DNA of 64,000 nt. Origin: Candidatus Poribacteria bacterium. Lineage in GTDB: Bacteria; Poribacteria; WGA-4E; PCPOR2b. A program made the position numbers and the translations under genes. The notes beneath the pieces were generated by a model, which was not told the origin of the DNA, ran no database searches, and was given only the letters and a program-made list of their open reading frames with translations. Location of the stretch: positions 2,978,777 through 3,042,776 of the forward strand of contig CBDCUX010000005.1 in NCBI GenBank assembly GCA_965222805.1, given 5' to 3'. Shown piece by piece: positions 802 to 45,205 of this stretch. Positions within the stretch are counted from its first letter, which is position 1. The number at the start of each line of letters is the position of its first letter.

Positions 802-1011
802 TCATCGTTTTTTCCATGTATTAGCATAAGCGAGGCATGCTCGAATGTCTTTGATTACAATACCGGGGTAATTTTCGAGAATTTCTGCCTCGCTCCACCC
901 GCGCGCTAGTAGGTCAATAATGAACTCGACGGCTAAACGGGTGCCTTTAATAACAGGTTTTCCGGTCAGAATTGCTTCGTCAATAACGATTCGGGCTGTC
1001 CAATTTTGCAG
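802..1011 (-). CDS. DUF433 domain protein (antitoxin-like); start codon uncertain (no in-frame ATG, possible CTG)
   Basis: Translation ...IVIDEAILTGKPVIKGTRLAVEFIIDLLARGWSEAEILENYPGIVIKDIRACLAYA matches the conserved DUF433 core (KGTR..V..I......G.S.EEI...YP.L...DI.A.L.YA). Stop TGA at 804-802, in-frame TAG upstream at 1023-1021. Confidence 0.5.
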   Translation of the reverse strand: MQNWTARIVIDEAILTGKPVIKGTRLAVEFIIDLLARGWSEAEILENYPGIVIKDIRACLAYANTWKKR

Positions 1012-1076
1012 GGGTTCGGGCTACATACGTTTACAATCCTTCATCAGCCAAGAGAACTGAACCGTTACATAAACAT

Positions 1077-1295
1077 CGTTTTATACACATGTCGCCCCGC
1101 TGGGGCTTTAGTCACTTGGCTGCTCATTTTCTATAAACATGTCGCACCTCTGGTGCTTTAGGGGGTTTGGGTTAGGCATGTGCTGCTATACACATAGCAC
1201 TCCTCTGGAGTGTGGAGATTAGATGTATCGCTTTTCTATAGACATATCGCTCCGCTGGAGCGAATGGATTTTCAATACTTACCAACTTAGGTTAA
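1077..1295. repeat. Tandem array of four roughly 55-bp hairpin units (family C), ending in ATGGATTTTCAATAC
   Basis: Units share the pattern TATA-N-ACAT-N-TCGC-NCC-NCTGG-NGC. The stem sequences differ between units (CCCC/GGGG, CACC/GGTG, CACTCC/GGAGTG, CTCC/GGAG) while pairing is kept. A homologous array occurs at about 11286-11663. Confidence 0.6.
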
Positions 1296-1330: not shown

Positions 1331-1480
1331 CTAACCATCGAGCCACGCTTGTAGTTCCCGCGTTATCCGTTGATACACCTTGATCGTGTTTTCACTCACG
1401 CCAGACACAACCAACGCCTTCGTATCCTCACTGATAGCCAGTCCCATATCCTGTTCCTGTGTTGTAACCAATTCGTTCAT
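1331..1480 (-). pseudogene. Short ORF (49 aa) resembling the N-terminal core-binding (SAM-like) domain of a tyrosine recombinase/integrase; probably a gene fragment
   Basis: MNELVTTQEQDMGLAISEDTKALVVSGVSENTIKVYQRITRELQAWLDG. The segment SENTIKVYQRITRELQAWL resembles the XerC/XerD/phage integrase N-terminal motif (..NTLRAYRRDL..F..WL). Good RBS (AAGGAG, 7 nt upstream), but the ORF stops after 49 aa with no catalytic domain. Confidence 0.3.
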
Positions 1481-3126: not shown

Positions 3127-3354
3127 TTATGGTAGATTTTAGAATTACTTAGACCCTCCCAATGCACAGCCAACCCCCTAAATCCCCAACTCCCCTGACA
3201 AGGGGACTCCCCCTGATAAGGGGGTAGGGGGGTTAGGGGAGCTTCTCCTCTTGTCTTTCCCCTCTTATCAGAGGGGTTCAGGGGGACTTTGGAAACTTCG
3301 CTAGGGTCGGAGTTATTGGCAAATGTCTACTTATTTCTCTAGTTCACCATAAAT
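3127..3354. repeat. MITE-like element, family A copy 1 (about 228 bp) with imperfect terminal inverted repeats
   Basis: Left end TTATGGTAGATTTTAGAA, right end TTCTCTAGTTCACCATAAAT (reverse complement TTTATGGTGAACTAGAGAA). Internal C-rich/G-rich hairpin modules CCCCTGACAAGGGG and CCCCCTGATAAGGGGG. Near-identical copies at 7463-7722 and 26177-26383, variant at 24848-24975. Confidence 0.8.
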
Positions 3355-3414: not shown

Positions 3415-6261
3415 TTATTTTGGTTCACTCAACCCAGAAGTGTGCTCGTGTATGCGCTGACGCTCGAGATTCGCATATGGGTCAGCGCGACGGGTGATGC
3501 CGGTGATAGCATCAACGGATTCATCTGCCTTAAACCGCAGATACAGTTTCTGTTCCTTCGCAGCCATCACCTCATTTCTGAGTGCACGATAGCACAGCAT
3601 CATGTTGTAGTGAGCATCTAGATCCTCCGGATCGACCGCTAGCGTTTTCTGGAATTCGGTGAGTGCGGCTTCATACTTCCGCTGAAGGTAGAGCAGTCTG
3701 CCCATCTCGTTGCGAACCCGTCGATCTCGCGGGAATTGGAGAGTAGCTGCCCGCAGGTGTTCAAGCGCGTCGTCATATTTTCCGTACGCCTTTTGGACCA
3801 GTGCGTAGAGGTAGTGCACCTTCGCTCGATGCGGATTGTCGGGGGAAAGTTGTTTCTGGAGGGTCATCGCTTTTTCAAGCATCTCCTCAGCCCCGTTCAT
3901 ATCGCCCTCCTGAATGCGACACCGTGCGACGTTGACCCACCCGTCCATATAGGTCGGTTCAATCTCCGTGACCTTCAGGAATACCGCTTCCGCGCCCTTG
4001 AGATCGCCTTGAAGGAATAGCCCGATACCGTAGTCATTCCAACGTTCACGGTGGTTCGATTGCGGGTTCTCACCTGAACCTCCGATTGCCGGTTCATTTG
4101 GTTCACCCCGGTCGACCACCCGCAAGGTTGCTATATCCTCTGCCATGGGAATAATTGGCAGGTTAGGAATTTCCTTAATTTTCCCAGCGACATCCGATGT
4201 ATCTCCCGTGAAGACCCAACGCCCATTGTCATACCCTTTACCAACCTGAAAATCGGCATCCTCCGGATCTCGCACCCCTGCATAAGCCCACTGCGTATGC
4301 CACCAGTTGAATTTGCGGTAATTCAACTTTGCGTGCAGATGAACCTCATCCCCACAATCCGGTGGAATGAAGAGGCGGTAGTGGACGGTATCCGCAGCAC
4401 CGGGGGGAATGGTGTTCGCATAGAGGACAGTCCGCGCCGCCCACGCATTGCGTTTATTAATAAGATTTCCGTGTTCGTCCAACATATACGCCCGATAAAA
4501 GTGTGCCCCCGGATCAACGGGTCCGTTTCCATCTTCCGCTTCAATCCGCCCACTCCAGAAGATTACCTTTCCGTTTTCATCCGTCGCCTTCAATTCCAAC
4601 CAGATATCGAAGGCATCAATTGTACCGGCGGGGAATCGGTGCCCCACTTCCCTTGTACGAACAACTACATCAACCCGAACCTCCTCACCACGCTGAACCG
4701 TTGGGTTGGAACCGTTGATAGGTGCGACAAGCTTTGTTATGTCGGTTACCGTGCCGATAGCGTGCCCCTGATTTCCGCCATCCATCATGCTAAAGGTGCG
4801 GAGTTGAGAGCTGGAGGACGCGCTGACACCGCCTTCTAACCCACCATGGGATTGGATCGGTGTTGCGGGACTTAGCGCGAAAATATCCACGCTCACTTGG
4901 TTATTCTGGAGAAATTCAGTGGTCACCTTGAGTTGTTCGTCGTGCTTGTTCACGAAAGGAAGCGCCGTATTCGCCGCGGGAAAGCGGTGGCTATGAACCT
5001 TGCCGTCGATATTCGCCGCATCTTTCGAGGAAATTAGTGGCATGTGGCAATCGGTGCACTTCTTCGGTTCTTCAGGGTAGTAGAAAGACAACGCCCCCTG
5101 ATGAGAGACCCCGCTGGTCTGCCACTGATCGTAGTCGTCAAAGCCACGGAACCATCGGAAATTGTTGACCGGCACATCGAGGTGCACCTTGTGACAGGTG
5201 GAGCAAAACTCTGCGGTGTTCTGGCGATGGAATGGCTTGAGGAAACTTTTTTTGTGGGGTTCTGGATCTAGGCGGATAAGGTAATTATGGAGTGTGCGAA
5301 TTGCAGGATTTTCGCTAGCGGCCATCTCATGTAGGGGTGGGTACTTGATGACGTATCCGCTGTTTCCCATCGTATCTTTGACCTTTTCCATTGAGTGGCA
5401 CGCCGTACACGCGAGCCCGGCTTGGGCGGCAGGCGTATGCAAATTCTCCCGGATCGGTCGATCCATCACGCCGTTCAGCAAGATAGCAGGGTCGTGACAG
5501 CCACCGCACCATTTGGAGGGTTGAATCCCATTGACATCCTGCATATACATGATCGATTTGCGATACCACTGATTGTTAAAGGAGGCGAAGTGATGCGCCG
5601 ATTCGTGCCACTGTTTGTAGATGTCCGGGTGGCAGCCGCTTTCAGCACAGGTTTGGGAGGTCAAGAAGAAATCGGTGGGAATCAGATCGCCGGTATAGGT
5701 CTCGACGGAAGCGGGGAAGAACGGTCCATCGGTGCCGCCGCCTTCCTCATACATACTAGTCGGCGGAGAGAGTGGATTTTTTACGAGATAGTCGGGGTTG
5801 GGTCGATAGTGTTGGATTAATCTTGCCCCAACGGGAAACAGCAGGCTGATAAGGAGAACGATTCCGGCGATTTGCGCTGCTTTGCGTGAAAACTCCGTCT
5901 CCGCTCGTCTCCCCAAAATCAACAGGTGTCCGACAAATAGGATTGTACCGAGCGTCACTGCCACGATATGGAGGATGAGCAGCCAGCGGTTGGGGGTCGT
6001 GGCACCGACGAACATCAGGTACACGCCTGAAATCGCCCCGACTCCCAGAGAAACCACCCCGCCTTTGCCGATAATTGACATGCCGGCGAAGCGCTTGTAC
6101 AGATAAACAATAAACGGGATAATCAGTGCAGCCCCGAGGACGATGTGGATCAGGACGTTCCCGATATAAAATAGGGTCGGCTCTCCGAAGCTGATTAGAT
6201 ATGCACTGTTAATCAGCAGGATTAGGAAACCGAGCAGTAGGAGTTTTGTCCAGAGTCGCAT
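3415..6261 (-). CDS. Multiheme c-type cytochrome with N-terminal transmembrane segments and C-terminal TPR repeats
   Basis: Four canonical CxxCH motifs (CGGCH, CTACH, CSTCH, CTDCH) plus one CX4CH. Hydrophobic N-terminal 150 aa. C-terminal third has TPR-like helices (AHYNMMLCYRALRNEVMAAKE..). Confidence 0.7.
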   Translation of the reverse strand: MRLWTKLLLLGFLILLINSAYLISFGEPTLFYIGNVLIHIVLGAALIIPFIVYLYKRFAGMSIIGKGGVVSLGVGAISGVYLMFVGATTPNRWLLILHIVAVTLGTILFVGHLLILGRRAETEFSRKAAQIAGIVLLISLLFPVGARLIQHYRPNPDYLVKNPLSPPTSMYEEGGGTDGPFFPASVETYTGDLIPTDFFLTSQTCAESGCHPDIYKQWHESAHHFASFNNQWYRKSIMYMQDVNGIQPSKWCGGCHDPAILLNGVMDRPIRENLHTPAAQAGLACTACHSMEKVKDTMGNSGYVIKYPPLHEMAASENPAIRTLHNYLIRLDPEPHKKSFLKPFHRQNTAEFCSTCHKVHLDVPVNNFRWFRGFDDYDQWQTSGVSHQGALSFYYPEEPKKCTDCHMPLISSKDAANIDGKVHSHRFPAANTALPFVNKHDEQLKVTTEFLQNNQVSVDIFALSPATPIQSHGGLEGGVSASSSSQLRTFSMMDGGNQGHAIGTVTDITKLVAPINGSNPTVQRGEEVRVDVVVRTREVGHRFPAGTIDAFDIWLELKATDENGKVIFWSGRIEAEDGNGPVDPGAHFYRAYMLDEHGNLINKRNAWAARTVLYANTIPPGAADTVHYRLFIPPDCGDEVHLHAKLNYRKFNWWHTQWAYAGVRDPEDADFQVGKGYDNGRWVFTGDTSDVAGKIKEIPNLPIIPMAEDIATLRVVDRGEPNEPAIGGSGENPQSNHRERWNDYGIGLFLQGDLKGAEAVFLKVTEIEPTYMDGWVNVARCRIQEGDMNGAEEMLEKAMTLQKQLSPDNPHRAKVHYLYALVQKAYGKYDDALEHLRAATLQFPRDRRVRNEMGRLLYLQRKYEAALTEFQKTLAVDPEDLDAHYNMMLCYRALRNEVMAAKEQKLYLRFKADESVDAITGITRRADPYANLERQRIHEHTSGLSEPK

Positions 6262-7462: not shown

Positions 7463-7722
7463 CTATGGGAGATTTTAGAATTACTTAGACACTTCCAATG
7501 AACAGCCAACCCCCCTAAATCCCCCTTATCAGGGGGACTTGATAATTAATCCCCCAACTCCCCTGACAAGGGGACTCCCTCTGATAAGGGGGCAGGGGGG
7601 GTTAGGGGAGCTTCTCCCTTGTCTTTCCCCTCTTATCAGAGGGGTTCAGGGGGACTTTGGAAACTTCGTGAAGGTCGGAGTTATTGGTAAATGTCTACTT
7701 ATTTCTCTAGTTCACCATAAAT
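7463..7722. repeat. MITE-like element family A copy 2 (about 260 bp, carries an extra internal hairpin module)
   Basis: Same termini and core as 3127-3354, plus an inserted module CCCCCTTATCAGGGGGACTTGATAATTAAT shared with family B. Its right end abuts the RBS (AAGGAG) and ATG of the PhyH gene at 7741. Confidence 0.8.
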
Positions 7723-10358: not shown

Positions 10359-11276
10359 CTAATTCTCAAGCACACTTCGTTCAGGCACAAAGCCGAGTTC
10401 TTCCTCGATTCGGTTGATCTCGTACACTGGATCTCTTTCATGTCCGGGGCGTGTGTAGTGGGAAAGATCTATCTGATCGGCATCCGCACCATACCATCCA
10501 CGAATAATATCGGGGACAGTATCCTCGGCGCAGGCTTGTGCTCCCACCGCGTTCAGGATGCGAACCCCCGGTTTATGCGAGGCTTCGGCGGCAAGCGTCA
10601 AACAGCGCACCGTATCGCTGAGGTACATGTATGAAATCGACCCCATCGACCACTGTCCTACCGGTCCCACCTTTCTGGGAGTCAATTCACGGTCGTCGGG
10701 GGCAATGCTCGCTAGGCGGATGTTAATAAAGTCCAGATCCTCATTCTGACGCGCCAGATAGCGCGAGACCTCCTCCATCATATACTTCGAGAAGCCGTAT
10801 CCCACGCGATCGAGACAGGGGTGTTCGTCGGGCATCGGTAATTGCAGGGGTCTGAACAGGGGAGACTGAAATCCGACAGCTGCAATCGAACTGGCGAGAA
10901 CGAATTTCTTGCAGCCGCCATCCACAAAGTATCGCACGAGTTGGTGTGTGCCCATAACATTGACCCGGAGTTGTTCCGCTTCGGTTCCGCCCCCCGTTAC
11001 CGCCGCGAGATGAACTACGACATCAACCCCGTAGGGATCTAATTTCTGTAGGTCGTCGGGCGATGTAAAATCGCCTTGCACTGCTGTTACGCCCTCTACT
11101 TCTGTCTCTTGCCTAGAGATACAGAAAACTTCGTGGCCTTTCGCCATTGAACCCGCGAGTGCACACCCGATAAATCCGCTGGTGCCAGTGATTAGGACTC
11201 TACTCATCTTACACTCCTTCTTTTGAACTTGTTCAGGTTGCAGGGAGTCCGTAGGTCGAGTTTCCATACTCGACAC
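10359..11276 (-). CDS. NAD-dependent epimerase/dehydratase family (SDR) protein
   Basis: N-terminal ITGTSGFIGCAL glycine-rich NAD(P)-binding motif. 305 aa. Confidence 0.7.
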   Translation of the reverse strand: MSSMETRPTDSLQPEQVQKKECKMSRVLITGTSGFIGCALAGSMAKGHEVFCISRQETEVEGVTAVQGDFTSPDDLQKLDPYGVDVVVHLAAVTGGGTEAEQLRVNVMGTHQLVRYFVDGGCKKFVLASSIAAVGFQSPLFRPLQLPMPDEHPCLDRVGYGFSKYMMEEVSRYLARQNEDLDFINIRLASIAPDDRELTPRKVGPVGQWSMGSISYMYLSDTVRCLTLAAEASHKPGVRILNAVGAQACAEDTVPDIIRGWYGADADQIDLSHYTRPGHERDPVYEINRIEEELGFVPERSVLEN

Positions 11277-11285
11277 TTACTAGAG

Positions 11286-11663
11286 ATAACGCAAGTTGCT
11301 AGGCAATCTATAGCTCGCGTTTTGATACCCGACACCTATCAGAAATAATCAAATTTACGACACACCTGTTGCCCCTCTGGGGCTTTTTGGATCGGGCAAA
11401 TTTGAGAAGATCCCGTGCCCGGGGATGCCCGACCTACGGGAGTGGTGCGCTTTGATACACACGTTGCCCCGTTGGGCTTTATGACTTGGGTGAGACACCC
11501 TCTGCTATGCATATTGCGCTCCTCTGGAGCACGGAGACTGGGTATATCTGCATTCTATAGACATATTGCTCCGCTGGAGCGGAAGGTAGGGCACTTGACG
11601 GGCGGTGGGACCTCGCCCCTACAGTCAAATCGATGGATTTTCAATGCCTAGCAGCTTGAATTA
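11286..11663. repeat. Family C tandem hairpin-repeat array, copy 2, preceded by an inverted REP (GTAGGTCGAG..CTCGAC at 11259-11285)
   Basis: Units ..GATACCCGACACCTATCAGAAATAA.., ..TTGCCCCTCTGGGGC.., ..TTGCCCCGTTGGGC.., ..GCGCTCCTCTGGAGC.., ..TATAGACATATTGCTCCGCTGGAGCGG.. The last unit and the trailing ATGGATTTTCAATGC are near-identical to the end of the array at 1077-1295. Confidence 0.6.
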
Positions 11664-11671
11664 CAATAACA

Positions 11672-11842
11672 GGACTTACGCAAATTTAGTATGCGGCACG
11701 AGATTTTTCTGTTTTTAACCCCCTAAATCCCCCTTATCAGGGGGACTTGATAACTAACCCCCTAACCCCCCTGCCCCCTTATCAGGGGGAGTCCCCTTGT
11801 CAGGGGAGTTGCAGGGGACTTATGAACCAACTGCGTAAGTCC
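11672..11842. repeat. MITE-like element family B copy 1 (terminal inverted repeats GGACTTACGCA)
   Basis: Left GGACTTACGCAAATTTAG, right GAACCAACTGCGTAAGTCC (reverse complement GGACTTACGCAGTTGGTTC). The core shares CTAAATCCCC, CCCCCTTATCAGGGGG and CCCCTTGTCAGGGG modules with family A. Second copy at 37866-38006. Confidence 0.75.
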
Positions 11843-11849
11843 TAAATAA

Positions 11850-12863
11850 TCAATCTTCCGACCATCGTATGACCGCACCGACCACATCCTTGACGCTGTT
11901 ATTGTTGATAGCGTCATACAGGGCTGGTGATTCCTCCCCTTCGGCGCGATGTGTAATCGTATGAGACCACGGCAAGACACCTGTCGCCATGTTCTTGAGC
12001 ACCGCGCGTCGGCAAGGCGCGAAGCCGTCGTCGCACGGGTAGAACATCGTCAACCGTTTGCCGTGGGGCGGTGCAAATTGATAGGAGAGCGGGGCTGTGC
12101 CGTAATGCCCCTGAAGCACAAACTTACCGTGCCTCCTACACAGTTCAATTGCCGGATCGATACACGCAGGAACACCGGTGGATTCAAAGACCACATCGGC
12201 ACCGTCAGGCGCAATTTTCTGTAGTTCCTCCACCACGTTTTGGGTGGAACCGTTGATCAGGAAATCCGCGCCGAGTTTTCGGGCGACTTCCAGTCTGTTC
12301 TGTTCGAGGTCAACGGCAACGACGACGCAGCCCCGATGGCTGCAGGCAGCGATGACCCCCAACCCGACCAATCCTGCGCCGTACACCGCGACGACATCTC
12401 CCATCCGCGGGTTTGCTGTATCGACGCCGTTCAAGCCGACCGCCGGCATCACAAACAGGCTCGCAGCGTCGGTGGGAACACCTTCGGGCAGCAGTTCCAA
12501 GCCGTGCGTTGTTTGCGGGCGGACGACAGCAGCGGAACAATGAACACCGGCCGCGGCTGAAACCTTCGTCCCATCGGGCAGCTGCATCCCCTCCCGGTTA
12601 TCCCGGTAATAGACCTTATCGCCGACTTTGAACGCATCGACCTTATCGCCAACGTGTTCGACAACACCGACCCCTTGATAGCCGGTACACAGTGGATACT
12701 GCTGCCCAGCTATCTTGTTGCGGATCAGGGCAAACTCCGTTCCAATGCTAACCCCGCTGTACAACGCCCGTATCAGGAGATGTTCCGGTCCCGGATCGGG
12801 CAAGGTGATATCGGCATAGCTAAAGTTCTGATTTTCGTCACAGATAAGCGCTTTGGCGTGCAT
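11850..12863 (-). CDS. MDR-family (medium-chain) alcohol dehydrogenase-like oxidoreductase
   Basis: 337 aa. Rossmann VYGAGLVGLGV. GroES-like N-terminal domain. Confidence 0.65.
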   Translation of the reverse strand: MHAKALICDENQNFSYADITLPDPGPEHLLIRALYSGVSIGTEFALIRNKIAGQQYPLCTGYQGVGVVEHVGDKVDAFKVGDKVYYRDNREGMQLPDGTKVSAAAGVHCSAAVVRPQTTHGLELLPEGVPTDAASLFVMPAVGLNGVDTANPRMGDVVAVYGAGLVGLGVIAACSHRGCVVVAVDLEQNRLEVARKLGADFLINGSTQNVVEELQKIAPDGADVVFESTGVPACIDPAIELCRRHGKFVLQGHYGTAPLSYQFAPPHGKRLTMFYPCDDGFAPCRRAVLKNMATGVLPWSHTITHRAEGEESPALYDAINNNSVKDVVGAVIRWSED

Positions 12864-29882: not shown

Positions 29883-31367
29883 ATGAAAACAATGCAATTT
29901 TCTATACTCACGCTTATCCTTGGGATGATCCTGTTTTTACCAAACACCTTTGCCCAAGATTACACGCGATGGGGTCTACCTGAAGGTGCCAAAGCCCGTC
30001 TTGGTAAAGGACGGATATCTGGTAATATTGCGTATTCTCCTGATGGTGCTCTGCTCGCTGTTGCCAGTAGTATCGGTATTTGGCTCTATGATACGGGGAC
30101 CTATCAAGAGGTTGCCCTGCTCACTGGGCATACGAATCGGGTCTATAGTGTTGCGTTTAGCCCGGATGGGAACACACTCGCAAGTGGTGGAGGGAGGCAG
30201 GCCATGACATCACTACGGCTGTGGGATGTTACTACAGGACAGTCCATAGCCACACTCACAGGGCATGAGTGGGTGATCTATAGCGTTGCGTTTAGCCCGG
30301 ATGGGAACACACTCGCAAGTGGGAGTGGGGACGATACCATCCGCCTATGGGATGTCGTCACGGGCGAACACAAGCAGACACTCACCGGGCATACGGGTTC
30401 GGTCAGGAGCGTTGCGTTCAGCCCGGATGGAAACACGCTGGCAAGTGGGAGTTCGGACGATACTATCCGTCTGTGGGATGTCGTCACAGGCGAACACAAG
30501 CAGACACTCACCGGGCATACGGGTTCGGTCAGGAGCGTTGCGTTCAGCCCGAATGGGAACACGCTCGCTAGTGGAAATACGGACGGAACTATCCATCTGT
30601 GGGATACCGTGACGGGGGCAAATCAACGGACCTTCACTGGACATACAAGGCTGGTCAGGAGCACCGCGTTTAGCCCGGATGGCACCACACTGGCAAGTGG
30701 GAATGAGGATGGCACGGTGCTTCTGTGGGAACTTAGCCCCACAGCGGCACCACAACTGCTCGGGGATGTCAACCGCGATGGTGTGGTGAACGCCCAAGAT
30801 TTAGTGATCGTTGCTGCGCGGTTTGGGCAGAGGGAACAGAATGGTGCTGATGTCAATGGGGATGGAGTTGTCAATATTTTCGATCTTGTCATGGTCGCTG
30901 GGCTGCTTAGCGATACGGCAGCCGCGCCTTCGGCGCATCCACAGTTACTGGCAAGGCTCACCGTTGCGGAAGTCGAGGATTGGATCAACCAAGCGCAGGG
31001 GTTAGCCCTCACGGATGCAACTTTGCAAAGAGGAGTTCTCTTTCTTGAACATTTGCTCGCGGCGTTGACCCCGACAAAGAATGCCCTGTTGCCTAACTAC
31101 CCGAATCCGTTCAATCCAGAGACGTGGATGCCGTATCAACTCGTTCACGCTGCCGATGTCCAAGTCACCATTTATGACACAAAGGGCGCGATGGTGCGTC
31201 AATTAGATTTGGGGCATCAGCCTGCAGGATATTACACGGATCGGTCAAAGGCGGCGTATTGGGACGGGTACAATGGGAGTGGTGAATCGGTGGCAAGCGG
31301 GGTCTATTTCTATCAACTCCGGGCGGAGGATTATTCAGCCACGAGACGGATGGTAATCGTCAAGTAG
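29883..31367 (+). CDS. WD40-repeat protein paralog 2 with C-terminal dockerin-type repeats and T9SS C-terminal sorting domain
   Basis: Signal peptide (MKTMQFSILTLILGMILFLPNTFAQ), WD40 repeats, two DVN(G/R)DGVVN..DL dockerin-like repeats, then NYPNPFNPETW...GVYFYQLRAEDYS..RRMVIVK matching the Por/T9SS C-terminal-domain consensus. Confidence 0.75.
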   Translation: MKTMQFSILTLILGMILFLPNTFAQDYTRWGLPEGAKARLGKGRISGNIAYSPDGALLAVASSIGIWLYDTGTYQEVALLTGHTNRVYSVAFSPDGNTLASGGGRQAMTSLRLWDVTTGQSIATLTGHEWVIYSVAFSPDGNTLASGSGDDTIRLWDVVTGEHKQTLTGHTGSVRSVAFSPDGNTLASGSSDDTIRLWDVVTGEHKQTLTGHTGSVRSVAFSPNGNTLASGNTDGTIHLWDTVTGANQRTFTGHTRLVRSTAFSPDGTTLASGNEDGTVLLWELSPTAAPQLLGDVNRDGVVNAQDLVIVAARFGQREQNGADVNGDGVVNIFDLVMVAGLLSDTAAAPSAHPQLLARLTVAEVEDWINQAQGLALTDATLQRGVLFLEHLLAALTPTKNALLPNYPNPFNPETWMPYQLVHAADVQVTIYDTKGAMVRQLDLGHQPAGYYTDRSKAAYWDGYNGSGESVASGVYFYQLRAEDYSATRRMVIVK

Positions 31368-31423: not shown

Positions 31424-33253
31424 ATGAAAACAGTTGTGGCTTTGTTTATTCTTTTTGTCCTATTTCATGCAAGCACTTTCGCCCAAGATTCCCCACAATG
31501 GAATTTACCCGAAGGTGTCAAAGCACGCTTTGGTAAGGGTAAGATATTTGAACTTCAATATTCGCCGGACGGTACTCTGCTCACCGTCGCTAGTGGTATC
31601 GGTATTTGGCTCTATGATACAACGACCCTTCGAGAGGTTAGCCTACTTACTGGGCATACGGGTTTGGTCAAGAGTATAGCGTTCAGCCCGGATGGACGGA
31701 CGCTTGCCAGTGGAAGTTCAGACAGCACAGTGCGCTTGTGGGATGGTGTGACGGGTAGACACAAGCGGACACTTAAAGGGCATACGGGTTCAGTTAATAG
31801 CATCGCCTTTAGCCCGGATGGGAAAACCCTTGCCAGTGGAAGTGGGGACGGGACGTTGCGATTGTGGGATGGCATGACGGGTATATATAAGCAAACGCTT
31901 ACGGGACATATCTCTGGGGTCAGTAGCATCGCTTTCAGTCCAGAAGGCACCACGCTCGCGAGCGGAAGTTCGGATAGCACAGTACGGCTGTGGGATAGTG
32001 TGACGGGTGAACATAAGCATATACTCACAGAGCATACGCGGAGAGTTACTAGCGTTGCGTTCAGTCTAAATGGGAAGACCCTCGTCAGTGGTGGGTATGA
32101 CACGGTACGGATGTGGGATGGCGTAACGGGTGAACACAAGCGAATACTCATAAGACATACGTGGGGTGGTACTAGCGTCGCGTTCAGTCCGGATGGAGAT
32201 CTGCTCGTTATTGGCGGGTCGGATGGCATAGTGCAACTACGGGTTGCTGCCACGGGTGTATACGATCAGACACTCAGAGGACATACGGAGGAGGTCAATA
32301 GCATCGCCTTTAGCCCGGATGGGAAGACCTTGGCTAGTGGGAGTGAGGACAGCACGGTGTGGCTGTGGGATGCTGCCACAGGGCATCCCATAGCTACGCT
32401 GATTGGACATACGGAGGAGGTCACTACTGTTGCGTTCAGCCCGGATGGGGACATACTTGCAAGCGGGAGCGTAGACAAGATGGTGAGGCTGTGGGATGTT
32501 GCCATGGGGTGGCACGAAGCCACACTTGCTAAGCATACAGAGGAGGTTTACGATATTGCGTTCAACCCGGATGGAGGCACACTCGCAAGTGGGAGCCGGA
32601 AAGGCGCGGTGCACCTGTGGGATGCTGTCACAGGACAACACAAAGCCACATACTGGAATCGAGGATTAGTTAAAACTATAACGTTCAGTCCCGATGGATA
32701 CACATTCACAAGTGGAGGCAGAGATGGCAAGAGGCACCTGTGGGACGCTGTCACGGGACGGTACAAAGCCCCACTCGGAAAACATATATCCCGTGCCTTC
32801 AGCATTGCGTTCAGTCCGGATGGCAGCCTCCTTGCAACTGGAAATAAGAACGGCACAGTGCACCTATGGGATACACGCACGGGGGCACGTCTCAAAACAC
32901 TCACAGGCGATGACCAAACGTCTTGGATCTATAGCCTAGCATTCAGTCCTGATAGCACTACCCTCGCAAGTGGGACCCATACAGGAGTGCATCTCTGGGA
33001 TGTCGTCACCGGACAGTCCACAGCTACATTTGCAGGGGGCAATGTGACCAGTGTTACGTTCAGTTCGGATGGCAGCACACTTGCAGCTGGAGGCTTTGAT
33101 GTGTGGCTATGGGACGTTGCGACGAAACAGCTCGTAACTACGTTCACAGGGCATACGGGCGTTGTCAACAGTGTTGCCTTCAGCCCAGATGGGGACATAC
33201 TTGCAAGTGGGAGTCGAGACGGTACAGTGCTCCTGTGGGATTTGCGTCGATAG
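31424..33253 (+). CDS. WD40-repeat beta-propeller protein, paralog 3 (signal peptide, about 14 WD repeats)
   Basis: Start ATG 31424 with AAAAGGAG RBS. Repeats of AFSPDG.TLASGS.D.TVRLWD. Downstream of the stop an out-of-frame DVNKAGVANVLDFSDV dockerin remnant is visible (33256-33330). Confidence 0.75.
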   Translation: MKTVVALFILFVLFHASTFAQDSPQWNLPEGVKARFGKGKIFELQYSPDGTLLTVASGIGIWLYDTTTLREVSLLTGHTGLVKSIAFSPDGRTLASGSSDSTVRLWDGVTGRHKRTLKGHTGSVNSIAFSPDGKTLASGSGDGTLRLWDGMTGIYKQTLTGHISGVSSIAFSPEGTTLASGSSDSTVRLWDSVTGEHKHILTEHTRRVTSVAFSLNGKTLVSGGYDTVRMWDGVTGEHKRILIRHTWGGTSVAFSPDGDLLVIGGSDGIVQLRVAATGVYDQTLRGHTEEVNSIAFSPDGKTLASGSEDSTVWLWDAATGHPIATLIGHTEEVTTVAFSPDGDILASGSVDKMVRLWDVAMGWHEATLAKHTEEVYDIAFNPDGGTLASGSRKGAVHLWDAVTGQHKATYWNRGLVKTITFSPDGYTFTSGGRDGKRHLWDAVTGRYKAPLGKHISRAFSIAFSPDGSLLATGNKNGTVHLWDTRTGARLKTLTGDDQTSWIYSLAFSPDSTTLASGTHTGVHLWDVVTGQSTATFAGGNVTSVTFSSDGSTLAAGGFDVWLWDVATKQLVTTFTGHTGVVNSVAFSPDGDILASGSRDGTVLLWDLRR

Positions 33254-35204: not shown

Positions 35205-35905
35205 CATGATGTAATGTAATATACAACAGACTTTGATTCTGTCATGGAAACTTACTCCATATGAGTCTTACCCTAACCGCGTTGCTGGAAACAGCAGGGT
35301 AAAAAGCAAGGGAAAATGGCTTAGAAAACAATGAATGTAGACATCGACTATGAGCCCGACTAAACTGGCATGGTGAGTCAACCAACTGATGTCTGAAGCC
35401 TCGTGAACTCCAAACAGGTGAATCTACAAAGGGGACAGGCTTGGAAACCTGTCTGACAAGCCTGTAGCCAAAAGGCATGAGCTGATGATACTACATTGTA
35501 GGTATGTAGTGTTAGTAAGTCAATCGCTTCGGGGTAAAGTCAGCACCTAATCCAGTTATTGTGTATTACATGAGAATCATGGAGTCCCTAAGTCGTCTCA
35601 TTTGAGAAGATAAGGGAGAGGAGGACAGGTAGGTAGCTGAGTCCGATACTCACCTGTGCGATATGTAATGTATTAAACAGTTTACCAAGCATGTCCAGTA
35701 TTGTATACAGCATGGCTTGTATCAGTAAGACAGCAACAGGCGAAAATACCAGAAGGCTGGGTCGCTTTTGTTTTACAACCAGCAAGGCAAACTCTATACA
35801 ATAGGGAAAGCCGTGTGCGGTGAAAGTCGAACGCACGGTTTGGAAGCAGGGAAAATGCCGTGAGGCATCTACCTATGCTTACTACTATAAAGTTATTGTG
35901 ACGCG
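35205..35905. other. Roughly 700-bp ORF-free, lower-GC intergenic segment with several stable hairpins; candidate structured ncRNA or decayed gene
   Basis: No ORF of at least 60 aa on the plus strand; the minus-strand ORFs have implausible sequences. Hairpins include UACCCU..GCUG-GAAA-CAGC..AGGGUA (GNRA tetraloop) at about 35268-35312 and GACAGG-CUUGGAAA-CCUGUC at about 35434-35454. Confidence 0.3.
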
Positions 35906-37843: not shown

Positions 37844-37865
37844 TTTATTTATCCTTACCTCTTCA

Positions 37866-38006
37866 GGACTTACGCAAATTTAGGACGCGGCGCAAGATTT
37901 TTTTATTTTTAACCCCCTAAATCCCCAACCCCCCGGCCCCCTTATCAGGGGGAGACCCCTTGTCAGGAGAGTTACAGGGGGACTTATGAACCAACTGCGT
38001 AAGTCC
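37866..38006. repeat. MITE-like element family B copy 2
   Basis: GGACTTACGCAAATTTAGG ... GAACCAACTGCGTAAGTCC. Lies directly 3' of an MDR alcohol dehydrogenase gene, as does copy 1. Confidence 0.75.
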
Positions 38007-38020
38007 TACCCTTAAAATTG

Positions 38021-44939: not shown

Positions 44940-45051
44940 AGCGTGAAGCGTACTTCCACCGCAGAGACACGGAGAAAAACAATAACTCAAGTTGCTATTT
45001 ATCAAACCTGCTCGGCTTGGATAGACATATTCAAGCCGTCCTCGCAGATGT

Positions 45052-45075
45052 GCAGTGGATTTGTCAATCCACTGC
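45052..45075. terminator. Perfect 10-bp-stem palindrome GCAGTGGATT-TGTC-AATCCACTGC between convergent genes
   Basis: A near-identical copy at 52094-52116 sits in the equivalent convergent position. Confidence 0.45.
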
Positions 45076-45205
45076 GAGCATAAGTGGCAACTTGCGTAAC
45101 GATAATAAAAACTCTGCGTCTCTGTGGTCGGTTTTCCCGTTTTCTGCTTTTAGCGCGGGTCGGGTCTTTAGCGAAACGAGATCACGCCAGCAGGGTGATG
45201 CGTGA

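Follow-up and report, generated by a model that had tools for sequence, protein, structure and literature searches.

The window examined here, a 64,000-nucleotide stretch of a Candidatus Poribacteria genome, contains two arrays of hairpin-forming repeat units, each lying between open reading frames (ORFs) of the minus strand (Table 1). In both arrays the units share the core TATAnACATrTnGC-nCC-nCT-GGn-GC and follow one another head-to-tail at about 50 bp; an unpaired 5' tag, (TATAn)ACATrT, stands before a GC-rich hairpin of 5 to 7 bp with an nCT loop. A preliminary description of this DNA had reported two arrays of four to six units of roughly 55 bp. The two arrays stand, but each has four units of about 50 bp, and the count of six does not hold for array 2. 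Start-to-start spacing in array 1 is 50, 55 and 50 bp, and the longer gaps between units in array 2 are nested insertions. The stems of array 1 change from unit to unit (GCCCC/GGGGC, GCACC/GGTGC, CACTCC/GGAGTG and (TC)GCTCC/GGAGC(GA)), and the hairpins of both arrays are present in centroid folds computed for single-stranded DNA and for RNA alike. A profile hidden Markov model of the unit, run over the 64 kb, matched at the two arrays only, and Tandem Repeats Finder called neither of them because the units are too divergent. Both arrays end in the same tail, as had been described: ATGGATTTTCAATRC occurs without mismatch at each and has no other exact copy in the window. Units of the same rank in array 1 and array 2 are more alike than units inside one array, from which it follows that the whole composite is the copied entity.

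The constraint on the hairpins was assessed on units chosen solely by the 5' anchor TATAnACATr, to avoid circularity. A hairpin with at least four of five pairs follows the anchor in 206 of 234 distinct sequences. Across 150 distinct anchor-selected 30-mers, 81.7% of stem cells are paired as against 69.6% in shuffles, and changes on both sides of a stem number 147 where 45 were expected; none of 500 shuffles was as high in either measure. The covariation score of these units is 0.370 compared with 0.167 for the shuffles, and pairing in slid registers is 39 to 51%. The substitutions are thus compensatory rather than random, which agrees with the earlier observation that stems change while their pairing is kept. 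Mismatched stem positions are G.T in 30 cases and A.C in 47, a similar frequency, and therefore no single transcribed strand is indicated.

The unit, first described from the window alone, proved to be widespread. When the exact pattern TATANACATRTNGCNCCNCTGGNGC was scanned against GTDB with one genome per species, it was found in at least 118 stretches of public genomes, nearly all of them, among the matches listed, in metagenome-assembled genomes (MAGs) of Candidatus Poribacteria. A few of the listed matches fall in Acidimicrobiia, Acidobacteriota, Verrucomicrobiota and Bacteroidota, those in the last two phyla including single exact units. The stem pair that the pattern leaves free is Watson-Crick in 158 of 161 exact matches listed (T-A 84, C-G 65, G-C 5, A-T 4). 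Most arrays are intergenic, with 166 of 192 strong unit matches outside ORFs of at least 90 amino acids (aa), and their density is estimated at roughly one per 20 to 30 kb. Neighbouring units on the same strand are most often 40 to 50 bp apart, and neighbouring pairs are head-to-tail in 129 cases (84%) and inverted in 25. Direct dimers, chiefly of two kinds (B1-B2 and C-A), make up most units, and the arrays of the window are a B1-B2 dimer followed by a C-A dimer. In the bigger arrays, tandem duplication of a higher order is seen at periods of 102, 116 and about 190 bp. Where long ORFs lie on either side, units are antisense to both in 61 arrays and sense in 30, and the flanking genes are convergent in 14 arrays and divergent in 13, so that orientation to neighbouring genes, at about 2:1, is a bias and not a rule. 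The units form a repeat family that runs through the poribacterial lineage and lies mostly between genes.

In related genomes, members of this family flank genes for small transposases of the Y1 class. A tblastn search of the window and the collected DNA of related loci (L numbers below), with an IS608 TnpA sequence as the query, revealed ORFs of 153 to 159 aa in L008, L021, L023, L051, L089 and L029, and all of these loci except L008 rank among those with the largest unit arrays. The ORFs match PF01797 (Y1_Tnp) at about 1e-28 (9.5e-28), have the TnpA proteins of ISDra2 and IS608 as their closest solved structures, and carry the motifs PDHIHIL, SWQ and YIENQxxHH; against the IS200 model NF033573 a Y1 protein scores 73.7 bits, above the cut-off of 55. 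The arrangement around the gene in L008 is A(-) C(-) / gene(-) / C(+) A(+), and L021, L023, L089 and L051 are alike. Inverted C-A dimers thus flank the gene, separated from it by about 50 to 65 nt on one side and, in four of five loci, by about 140 nt on the other (75 nt in L051), and type C is the gene-proximal unit. Inverted unit flanks were found for the Y1 genes of L008, L021, L023, L051, L089, L127, L128-135 and L136; at all Y1 loci examined, units lie no more than about 160 nt from the gene, and at most of these loci they stand inverted on its two sides.

The type of unit follows the type of gene. Y1 paralogs are about 70% identical, and each has its own stem subtype in the inverted flanks: GCCCC/GGGGC dimers in L127, ACCGCTCC/GGAGCGG dimers in L128-135, and GCACC/GGTGC units in 50-bp tandems in L126, the last being the stem subtype of unit 2 in array 1. 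Four Y1 paralog lineages correspond in this way to four unit types (C-A, GCCCC, ACCGCTCC and GCACC). One identical protein, P0170, occurs on 24 contigs from different samples and has one place in a 5.72-Mb chromosome. In every place shown it lies in the order glycosyltransferase (GT4), Y1 gene, polysaccharide deacetylase, methyltransferase and BacA, and the number of units at this locus varies among strains. Homologs of the Y1 proteins number at least 7984 at E<=1e-20. Hairpins tagged ACATG lie 50 to 160 nt from homologous Y1 genes in one MAG of Acidimicrobiia, one contig of Acidobacteria and two other large contigs.

The composite in the window is enclosed in a further element. Its tail runs on into a 16-bp terminal inverted repeat (TIR) whose left end reads TAACGCAAGTTGCTAG and whose right end reads ...AAACCGATGGATTTTCAA-nn-CTAGCAACTTGCGTTA; what had been described as a tail common to both arrays is the inner part of the TIR end and not a separate motif. 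The TIRs of array 2 agree at 13 of 16 bases. In the collected DNA 25 elements are bounded by TIR pairs, and a 3-bp direct repeat stands exactly at the junction in 9 of the 25, compared with 0 to 3 at shifted offsets. Array 1, array 2, L119, L028 and L015 align over the whole B1-B2-C-A-tail composite, their length differences being nested insertions.

Orthologous loci, reached through homologs of the epimerase encoded beside array 2, show the site with and without this DNA. The window epimerase has no exact match on record and is 89 to 91% identical to proteins of poribacterial relatives. In L120 and L121 (epimerase about 89 to 90% identical) the spacer between it and the alcohol dehydrogenase (ADH) gene is 42 bp, and in L122-L125 (80%) it is 35 bp, the value for L123 and L124 being taken from the position of the ADH gene end. 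The spacer is 462 bp in L119 (89%) and 642 bp in the window; the order of inserts is the same in these two, and the window has additional nested pieces. Because relatives have a spacer of 35 to 42 bp where the window has 642 bp, the array-bearing DNA is an insertion, and the polymorphism shows that the element is not a required regulator of the epimerase.

Taken together, each array is probably carried as cargo by a mobile element that is small and non-autonomous; this cargo consists of B1-B2 and C-A dimers of units that resemble repetitive extragenic palindromes (REPs) and are linked to Y1 transposases. Read in this way, the DNA of the arrays is selfish repeat DNA and not a small-RNA array. 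Since the arrangement is like that of REPs and their REP-associated tyrosine transposases (RAYTs), the four stems within one array mostly represent four repeat subfamilies and not the drift of a single structure. On the model of IS200/IS605 TnpA and of the TnpA-REP of E. coli, a Y1 dimer would recognise the hairpin and the tag at its foot in single-stranded DNA and would cut and rejoin nearby. Such cutting and rejoining would seed and multiply units and dimers; it would maintain the pairing of stems and yet allow each subfamily to diverge along with its enzyme. The arrays could afterwards grow by tandem duplication. The four-unit composite of the window would have been carried to its two sites as a passenger within the TIR element, through the action of a putative DDE-type transposase. 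The preliminary description had seen in the covariation a selection on the structure of RNA or single-stranded DNA. The pairing constraint is upheld, and the single-stranded DNA part of that proposal is supported through related genomes, whereas the RNA part is not supported, and the differences between units are mostly those of subfamilies. Its suggestions of a recombination substrate and of a link to a RAYT-like gene fit the units that flank Y1/IS200-like genes in related genomes.

Several points weigh against this explanation. Our tblastn search detected no Y1 gene in the window, so that the link to the enzyme rests on related genomes, and binding, cleavage and transposition by Y1 are predicted from analogy. 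The NCBIfam model for REP-associated tyrosine transposases, NF047646, gives the Y1 proteins 30 to 41 bits against a cut-off of 80, and their tyrosine motif places them in TnpAY1 subclass 1.2, which was reported to be free of REPs (Quentin et al. 2018, PMC6006769). The units bear neither a GTAG nor a CGTC tag, and their head-to-tail layout is negligible in known REP families. On the side of the carrier, array 1 has a right TIR, and no left TIR was found for it; array 2 lacks a clean 3-bp duplication (aga / caa). A TIR lies within 200 bp of just 24 of 146 arrays, and therefore the units are not confined to the TIR carrier. A search of about 1 Mb found no autonomous element with the same TIRs, and TIR pairs 700 to 3500 bp apart enclose ordinary housekeeping genes. 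The more specific proposal, that (TATAn)ACATrT hairpins are the cognate DNA of TnpAY1 subclass 1.2 and form a cross-phylum REP-type system (Poribacteria, Acidimicrobiia and Acidobacteria) propagating head-to-tail dimers, seems to us evenly balanced between true and false.

Among the alternatives, the one that survives best is an ordinary transposable element of the miniature inverted-repeat kind (MITE) with a repetitive core, in which the units owe their spread to the TIR element and to tandem duplication, the Y1 genes merely sit in repeat-rich spacers, and the stems stay paired through self-correction of quasi-palindromes by template switching. In its favour are the TIRs, the 3-bp target duplications of some family members, the empty orthologous site, the conservation of the entire composite and the higher-order tandem duplications with their periods of 102, 116 and about 190 bp. 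We nevertheless regard this alternative as unlikely, because 122 of 146 arrays have no TIR nearby, and because units stand no further than about 160 nt from the gene at every Y1 locus examined, mostly inverted on both sides, a pattern unexpected at one array per 20 to 30 kb or so. The specificity of unit subtype for each Y1 paralog, and the same unit type beside homologous Y1 genes in other phyla, also speak against it.

A second alternative is structured RNA: the small-RNA array proposed in the preliminary description, or a leader or trailer of several hairpins by which the mRNAs of neighbouring genes are regulated or stabilised. The stems do covary, the RNA fold has a z-score of -2.9, the reverse complement of the unit points the same way as the two flanking genes in 61 arrays versus 30, and classical REPs are known for stabilising mRNA. 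Searches against Rfam 15, however, gave no match to the arrays at gathering score and nothing relevant at E<=10 in positions 800 to 1600, and promoter and terminator scans of the window arrays were at chance level. Orientation to genes is not fixed, the G.T and A.C mismatches are symmetric, unit number varies among strains, other small elements are inserted in hairpin loops, and the element is missing between the same two genes in close relatives. A small-RNA array is therefore very unlikely, and this part of the preliminary description is not supported.

The third alternative is an array of DNA sites recruited by the host, for a nucleoid protein, for gyrase or as a recombination hot spot, with the palindrome acting as double-stranded DNA. 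Such a role, which would be compatible with Y1-linked mobile repeats, would suit units that occur almost without exception between genes, at regular intervals of about 50 bp, and enterobacterial arrays of REPs or bacterial interspersed mosaic elements (BIMEs) bind integration host factor (IHF) and other host proteins (PMC2817692). None of the results obtained here favours it in particular. Presence/absence polymorphism and variation in copy number argue against a needed site, and we give this alternative hardly any probability. Four candidates were ruled out: a cyanobacterial origin with a tandem small-RNA array of the NsiR1 type, which WD40 repeats and G/C-rich palindromes had suggested (no Rfam match, and the relatives are Poribacteria), a CRISPR-like array (the repeats differ from one another and the 'spacers' share a consensus), a Tn7-type or CRISPR-associated transposon (CAST) end with multiple transposase-binding sites (the arrays have the same orientation and are homologous over their full length), and tandem intrinsic terminators or promoters (scans at chance level and no T-runs). 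The preliminary description was thus right to set the arrays apart from CRISPR and from simple satellites.

Table 1. The two arrays, the third TIR-bounded element and the neighbouring genes, by position in the window
Feature	Position	Strand	Sequence or remark
DUF433 ORF, array 1 neighbour	~803-1018	-	
Array 1 unit 1 (type B1)	1082-1106	+	TATACACATGTC, then hairpin GCCCC-GCT-GGGGC
Array 1 unit 2 (B2 position)	1132-1156	+	TATAAACATGTC, then GCACC-TCT-GGTGC; GCACC/GGTGC stem subtype
Array 1 unit 3 (type C)	1187-1212	+	TATACACATAG, then CACTCC-TCT-GGAGTG
Array 1 unit 4 (type A)	1237-1263 (core 1237-1261)	+	TATAGACATA, then 7-bp stem TCGCTCC-GCT-GGAGCGA
Array 1 end	1264-1294	+	tail ATGGATTTTCAATAC (1264-1278), then degenerate right TIR (1279-1294, minus strand TAACCTAAGTTGGTAA)
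49-aa ORF, array 1 neighbour	1331-1480	-	
NAD-dependent epimerase, array 2 neighbour	10359-11207	-	
Left TIR of array-2 element (377 bp, 11287-11663)	11287-11302	+	TAACGCAAGTTGCTAG
Array 2 unit a (type B1)	11359-11383	+	hairpin GCCCC-TCT-GGGGC
Nested insertion between units a and b	11391-11437	-	GTAG-tagged REP-like hairpin, GTAGGTCGGGCA...TGCCCGAT on minus strand
Array 2 unit b (type B2, degenerate)	11454-11477	+	stem GCCCC-GTT-GGGC, 1 base lost
Array 2 unit c (type C)	11505-11531	+	CTATGCATATTGC, then GCTCC-TCT-GGAGC
Array 2 unit d (type A)	11556-11580	+	TATAGACATATT, then GCTCC-GCT-GGAGC
Second nested hairpin, between unit d and tail	11594-11622	-	GTAG-tagged, REP-like; GTAGGGGCGAGGTCCCACCGCCCGTCAAG on minus strand
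Array 2 end	11633-11663	+	tail ATGGATTTTCAATGC (11633-11647), then right TIR (11648-11663, minus strand TAATTCAAGCTGCTAG)
Zinc-type alcohol dehydrogenase (ADH), array 2 neighbour	11850-12863	-	
Third TIR-bounded element, 117 bp	44983-45099	.	same TIRs, no hairpin units

Of the neighbours of array 1, the DUF433 ORF has no in-frame ATG, GTG or TTG start. The 49-aa ORF has no Pfam match, by eye resembles the N terminus of a tyrosine recombinase, and is possibly what remains of a gene that the insertion disrupted. Spurious ORFs arise from the units themselves at positions 1006 to 1161 (plus strand) of the window, 7010 to 7336 of L051 and 5970 to 6389 of L008, with the recurring peptides …YKHVAPL… and …APAERYVY…. 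Elsewhere in the window, 35806 to 35882 (plus strand) matches group II intron domains (Rfam RF00029, 55.3 bits, E=4e-08), and Tandem Repeats Finder called 126-bp repeats at 30282 to 30709 and 31645 to 31883, which probably encode protein repeats of the WD40 type; a WD40 protein was confirmed in locus L040 only.

Two of the Y1 loci have features of their own. In one strain, a gene resembling tnpB (OrfB_IS605 and a Cas12f-like domain; L130, 499 to 1710) is inserted beside an otherwise syntenic Y1 gene. In the Acidimicrobiia MAG (L029, 5400 to 7400), inverted unit pairs about 60 nt apart are repeated about every 215 bp on the DNA around the Y1 gene; their stems are GCGCC/GGCGC and GCTCC/GGAGC, and the layout is nearer to that of the inverted REP doublets known as REPINs than to the head-to-tail dimers of Poribacteria. 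At the carrier end, TTGAAA-N17/18-TAnnnT can be read inward from the right TIR on the minus strand of the tail in L002, L015, L017, L028 and L063 (for example TAAGAT, TATAGT or TATCGT). This is a sigma-70-like promoter sequence aimed through the units, and it is not intact in either array of the window.

Other small elements are nested in the arrays or lie next to them. Hairpins that are REP-like, rich in GC and tagged with GTAG (GTAGGGGCGrGG...CCGCCCGTCAAG and GTAGGTCGGGCA...TGCCCGAC) lie nested in arrays of the window and of L026, L049, L070, L113, L034, L091 and L114, and may be a separate canonical REP family in Poribacteria. The first of the two in array 2 is interrupted by a further insert of about 27 nt (11400 to 11426) and is missing from the orthologous L119 array, and the second is common to L119, L026, L049, L070 and L113. 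A second MITE-like family, with TIRs AGGACTTACGCA and internal CCCCCTTATCAGGGGG palindromes, is present at 11671 to 11843 and 37865 to 38007 of the window, and related palindromes occur at 3209 to 3275, 7521 to 7643 and 26291. One copy abuts the array-2 element, and the same pair of elements is found in the orthologous spacer of L119.

The hairpin loop is itself a site at which sequences join. A micro-element of 23 to 27 nt, CCCCGATAAATCGGGATTCAAAA, which has a small hairpin of its own, is found inserted at a fixed loop position, GCnCC-n^CT-GGnGC, of many units (L024 ~4105-4130, L042 ~5808-5831 and ~6171-6194, L026, L084, L028 ~3266-3292, L068 and L090), and the window has no copy. It resembles a very small site-specific mobile repeat. 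Joining at this position, n|CT, is seen repeatedly, with CCCCGATAAATCGGGATTCAAAA and also with a further sequence, ATGAAGATTAA..., a hint that the site is reactive. Loop-truncated units in either orientation are also joined to ATGAAGATTAAGAA... (L097 ~6234, L104, L128 ~2065, L066, L085 and L008 ~6350), which suggests another element that targets the hairpin loop. IS1397 and ISKpn1 target enterobacterial REPs in like manner.

The reading of the arrays as Y1-linked mobile repeats replaces the RNA reading with a concrete repeat family and a candidate enzyme, and it extends REP-type systems to a phylum of sponge symbionts. If the units are indeed the partner of subclass 1.2, a DNA partner would be assigned to a very large group of small Y1 proteins that evolves slowly and for which neither such a partner nor a role is known, and head-to-tail dimers with a tag other than GTAG would widen the definition of a REP system. 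In practice, the units yield spurious small ORFs of the YKHVAPLGL type and fragmented assemblies in Poribacteria MAGs, and the strain-level variation in their copy number could be a typing marker. Our literature search returned nothing relevant on repeats of Poribacteria, on the peptide YKHVAPLG or on later work on subclass 1.2.

Comparison with known systems places the arrays among several of them. Like MITEs, the 377-bp array-2 element has 16-bp TIRs, a family in which 9 of 25 members show 3-bp duplications, and an empty orthologous site. Unlike them, the interiors of the family vary widely (91 to 412 bp, with or without units, in either orientation) and no autonomous partner was found. Nostoc punctiforme is said to harbour small dispersed repeats (SDR), reportedly described by Elhai and colleagues in 2008 with no enzyme link proposed; these are likewise very small, nested, hairpin-forming intergenic repeats, but the sequence families differ. 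With IS200/IS605 elements and their miniature derivatives, the palindrome-associated transposable elements (PATEs), our system shares the Y1_Tnp fold, a passed NCBIfam IS200 model and small hairpins near element ends, and two hairpins in a head-to-tail dimer have the look of a left and a right end placed on one strand. The flanks of the gene, however, are inverted here and not direct ends on the same strand, P0170 stays in one fixed context wherever it is shown, and TnpB appears only as the strain-specific neighbour in L130.

The TnpAY1 proteins of subclass 1.2 are reported to have no REPs and to come mostly from Cyanobacteria and Bacteroidetes (Quentin et al. 2018, PMC6006769). The Y1 proteins described here agree with them in the DH[IV]H, WQ and Y---Q--HH motifs, in a length of about 150 aa, in an apparently low copy number and in the lack of a tnpB partner. 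Their genes, by contrast, have abundant hairpin units on their flanks and are found in Poribacteria, Acidimicrobiia and Acidobacteria. REPs, BIMEs and REPINs, together with RAYT (TnpA-REP) Y1 transposases, are known in Proteobacteria (Nunvar 2010, PMC2817692; Bertels & Rainey 2011, PMC3116915; Bertels 2017, PMC5581495). The gene of a RAYT is present in low copy number and lies between abundant repeats of its own, and different paralogs go with different repeat families (PMC5581495; PMC6006769). The poribacterial system is alike in its short, extragenic, high-copy hairpin repeats with an unpaired tag at the hairpin foot, in its several subfamilies per genome, each with its own Y1 gene, and in the inverted repeats that flank a gene found, in every place shown, at a fixed locus and not scattered like an insertion sequence. 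It differs in its tag, (TATAn)ACATrT in place of GTAG or CGTC; in stems of just 5 to 7 bp; in neighbouring units that are 84% head-to-tail, where REPINs are inverted doublets and BIMEs alternate; in the Y---Q--HH motif of subclass 1.2, as opposed to the Y---NP of class 2, and a score below the NCBIfam RAYT cut-off; and in its host phylum.

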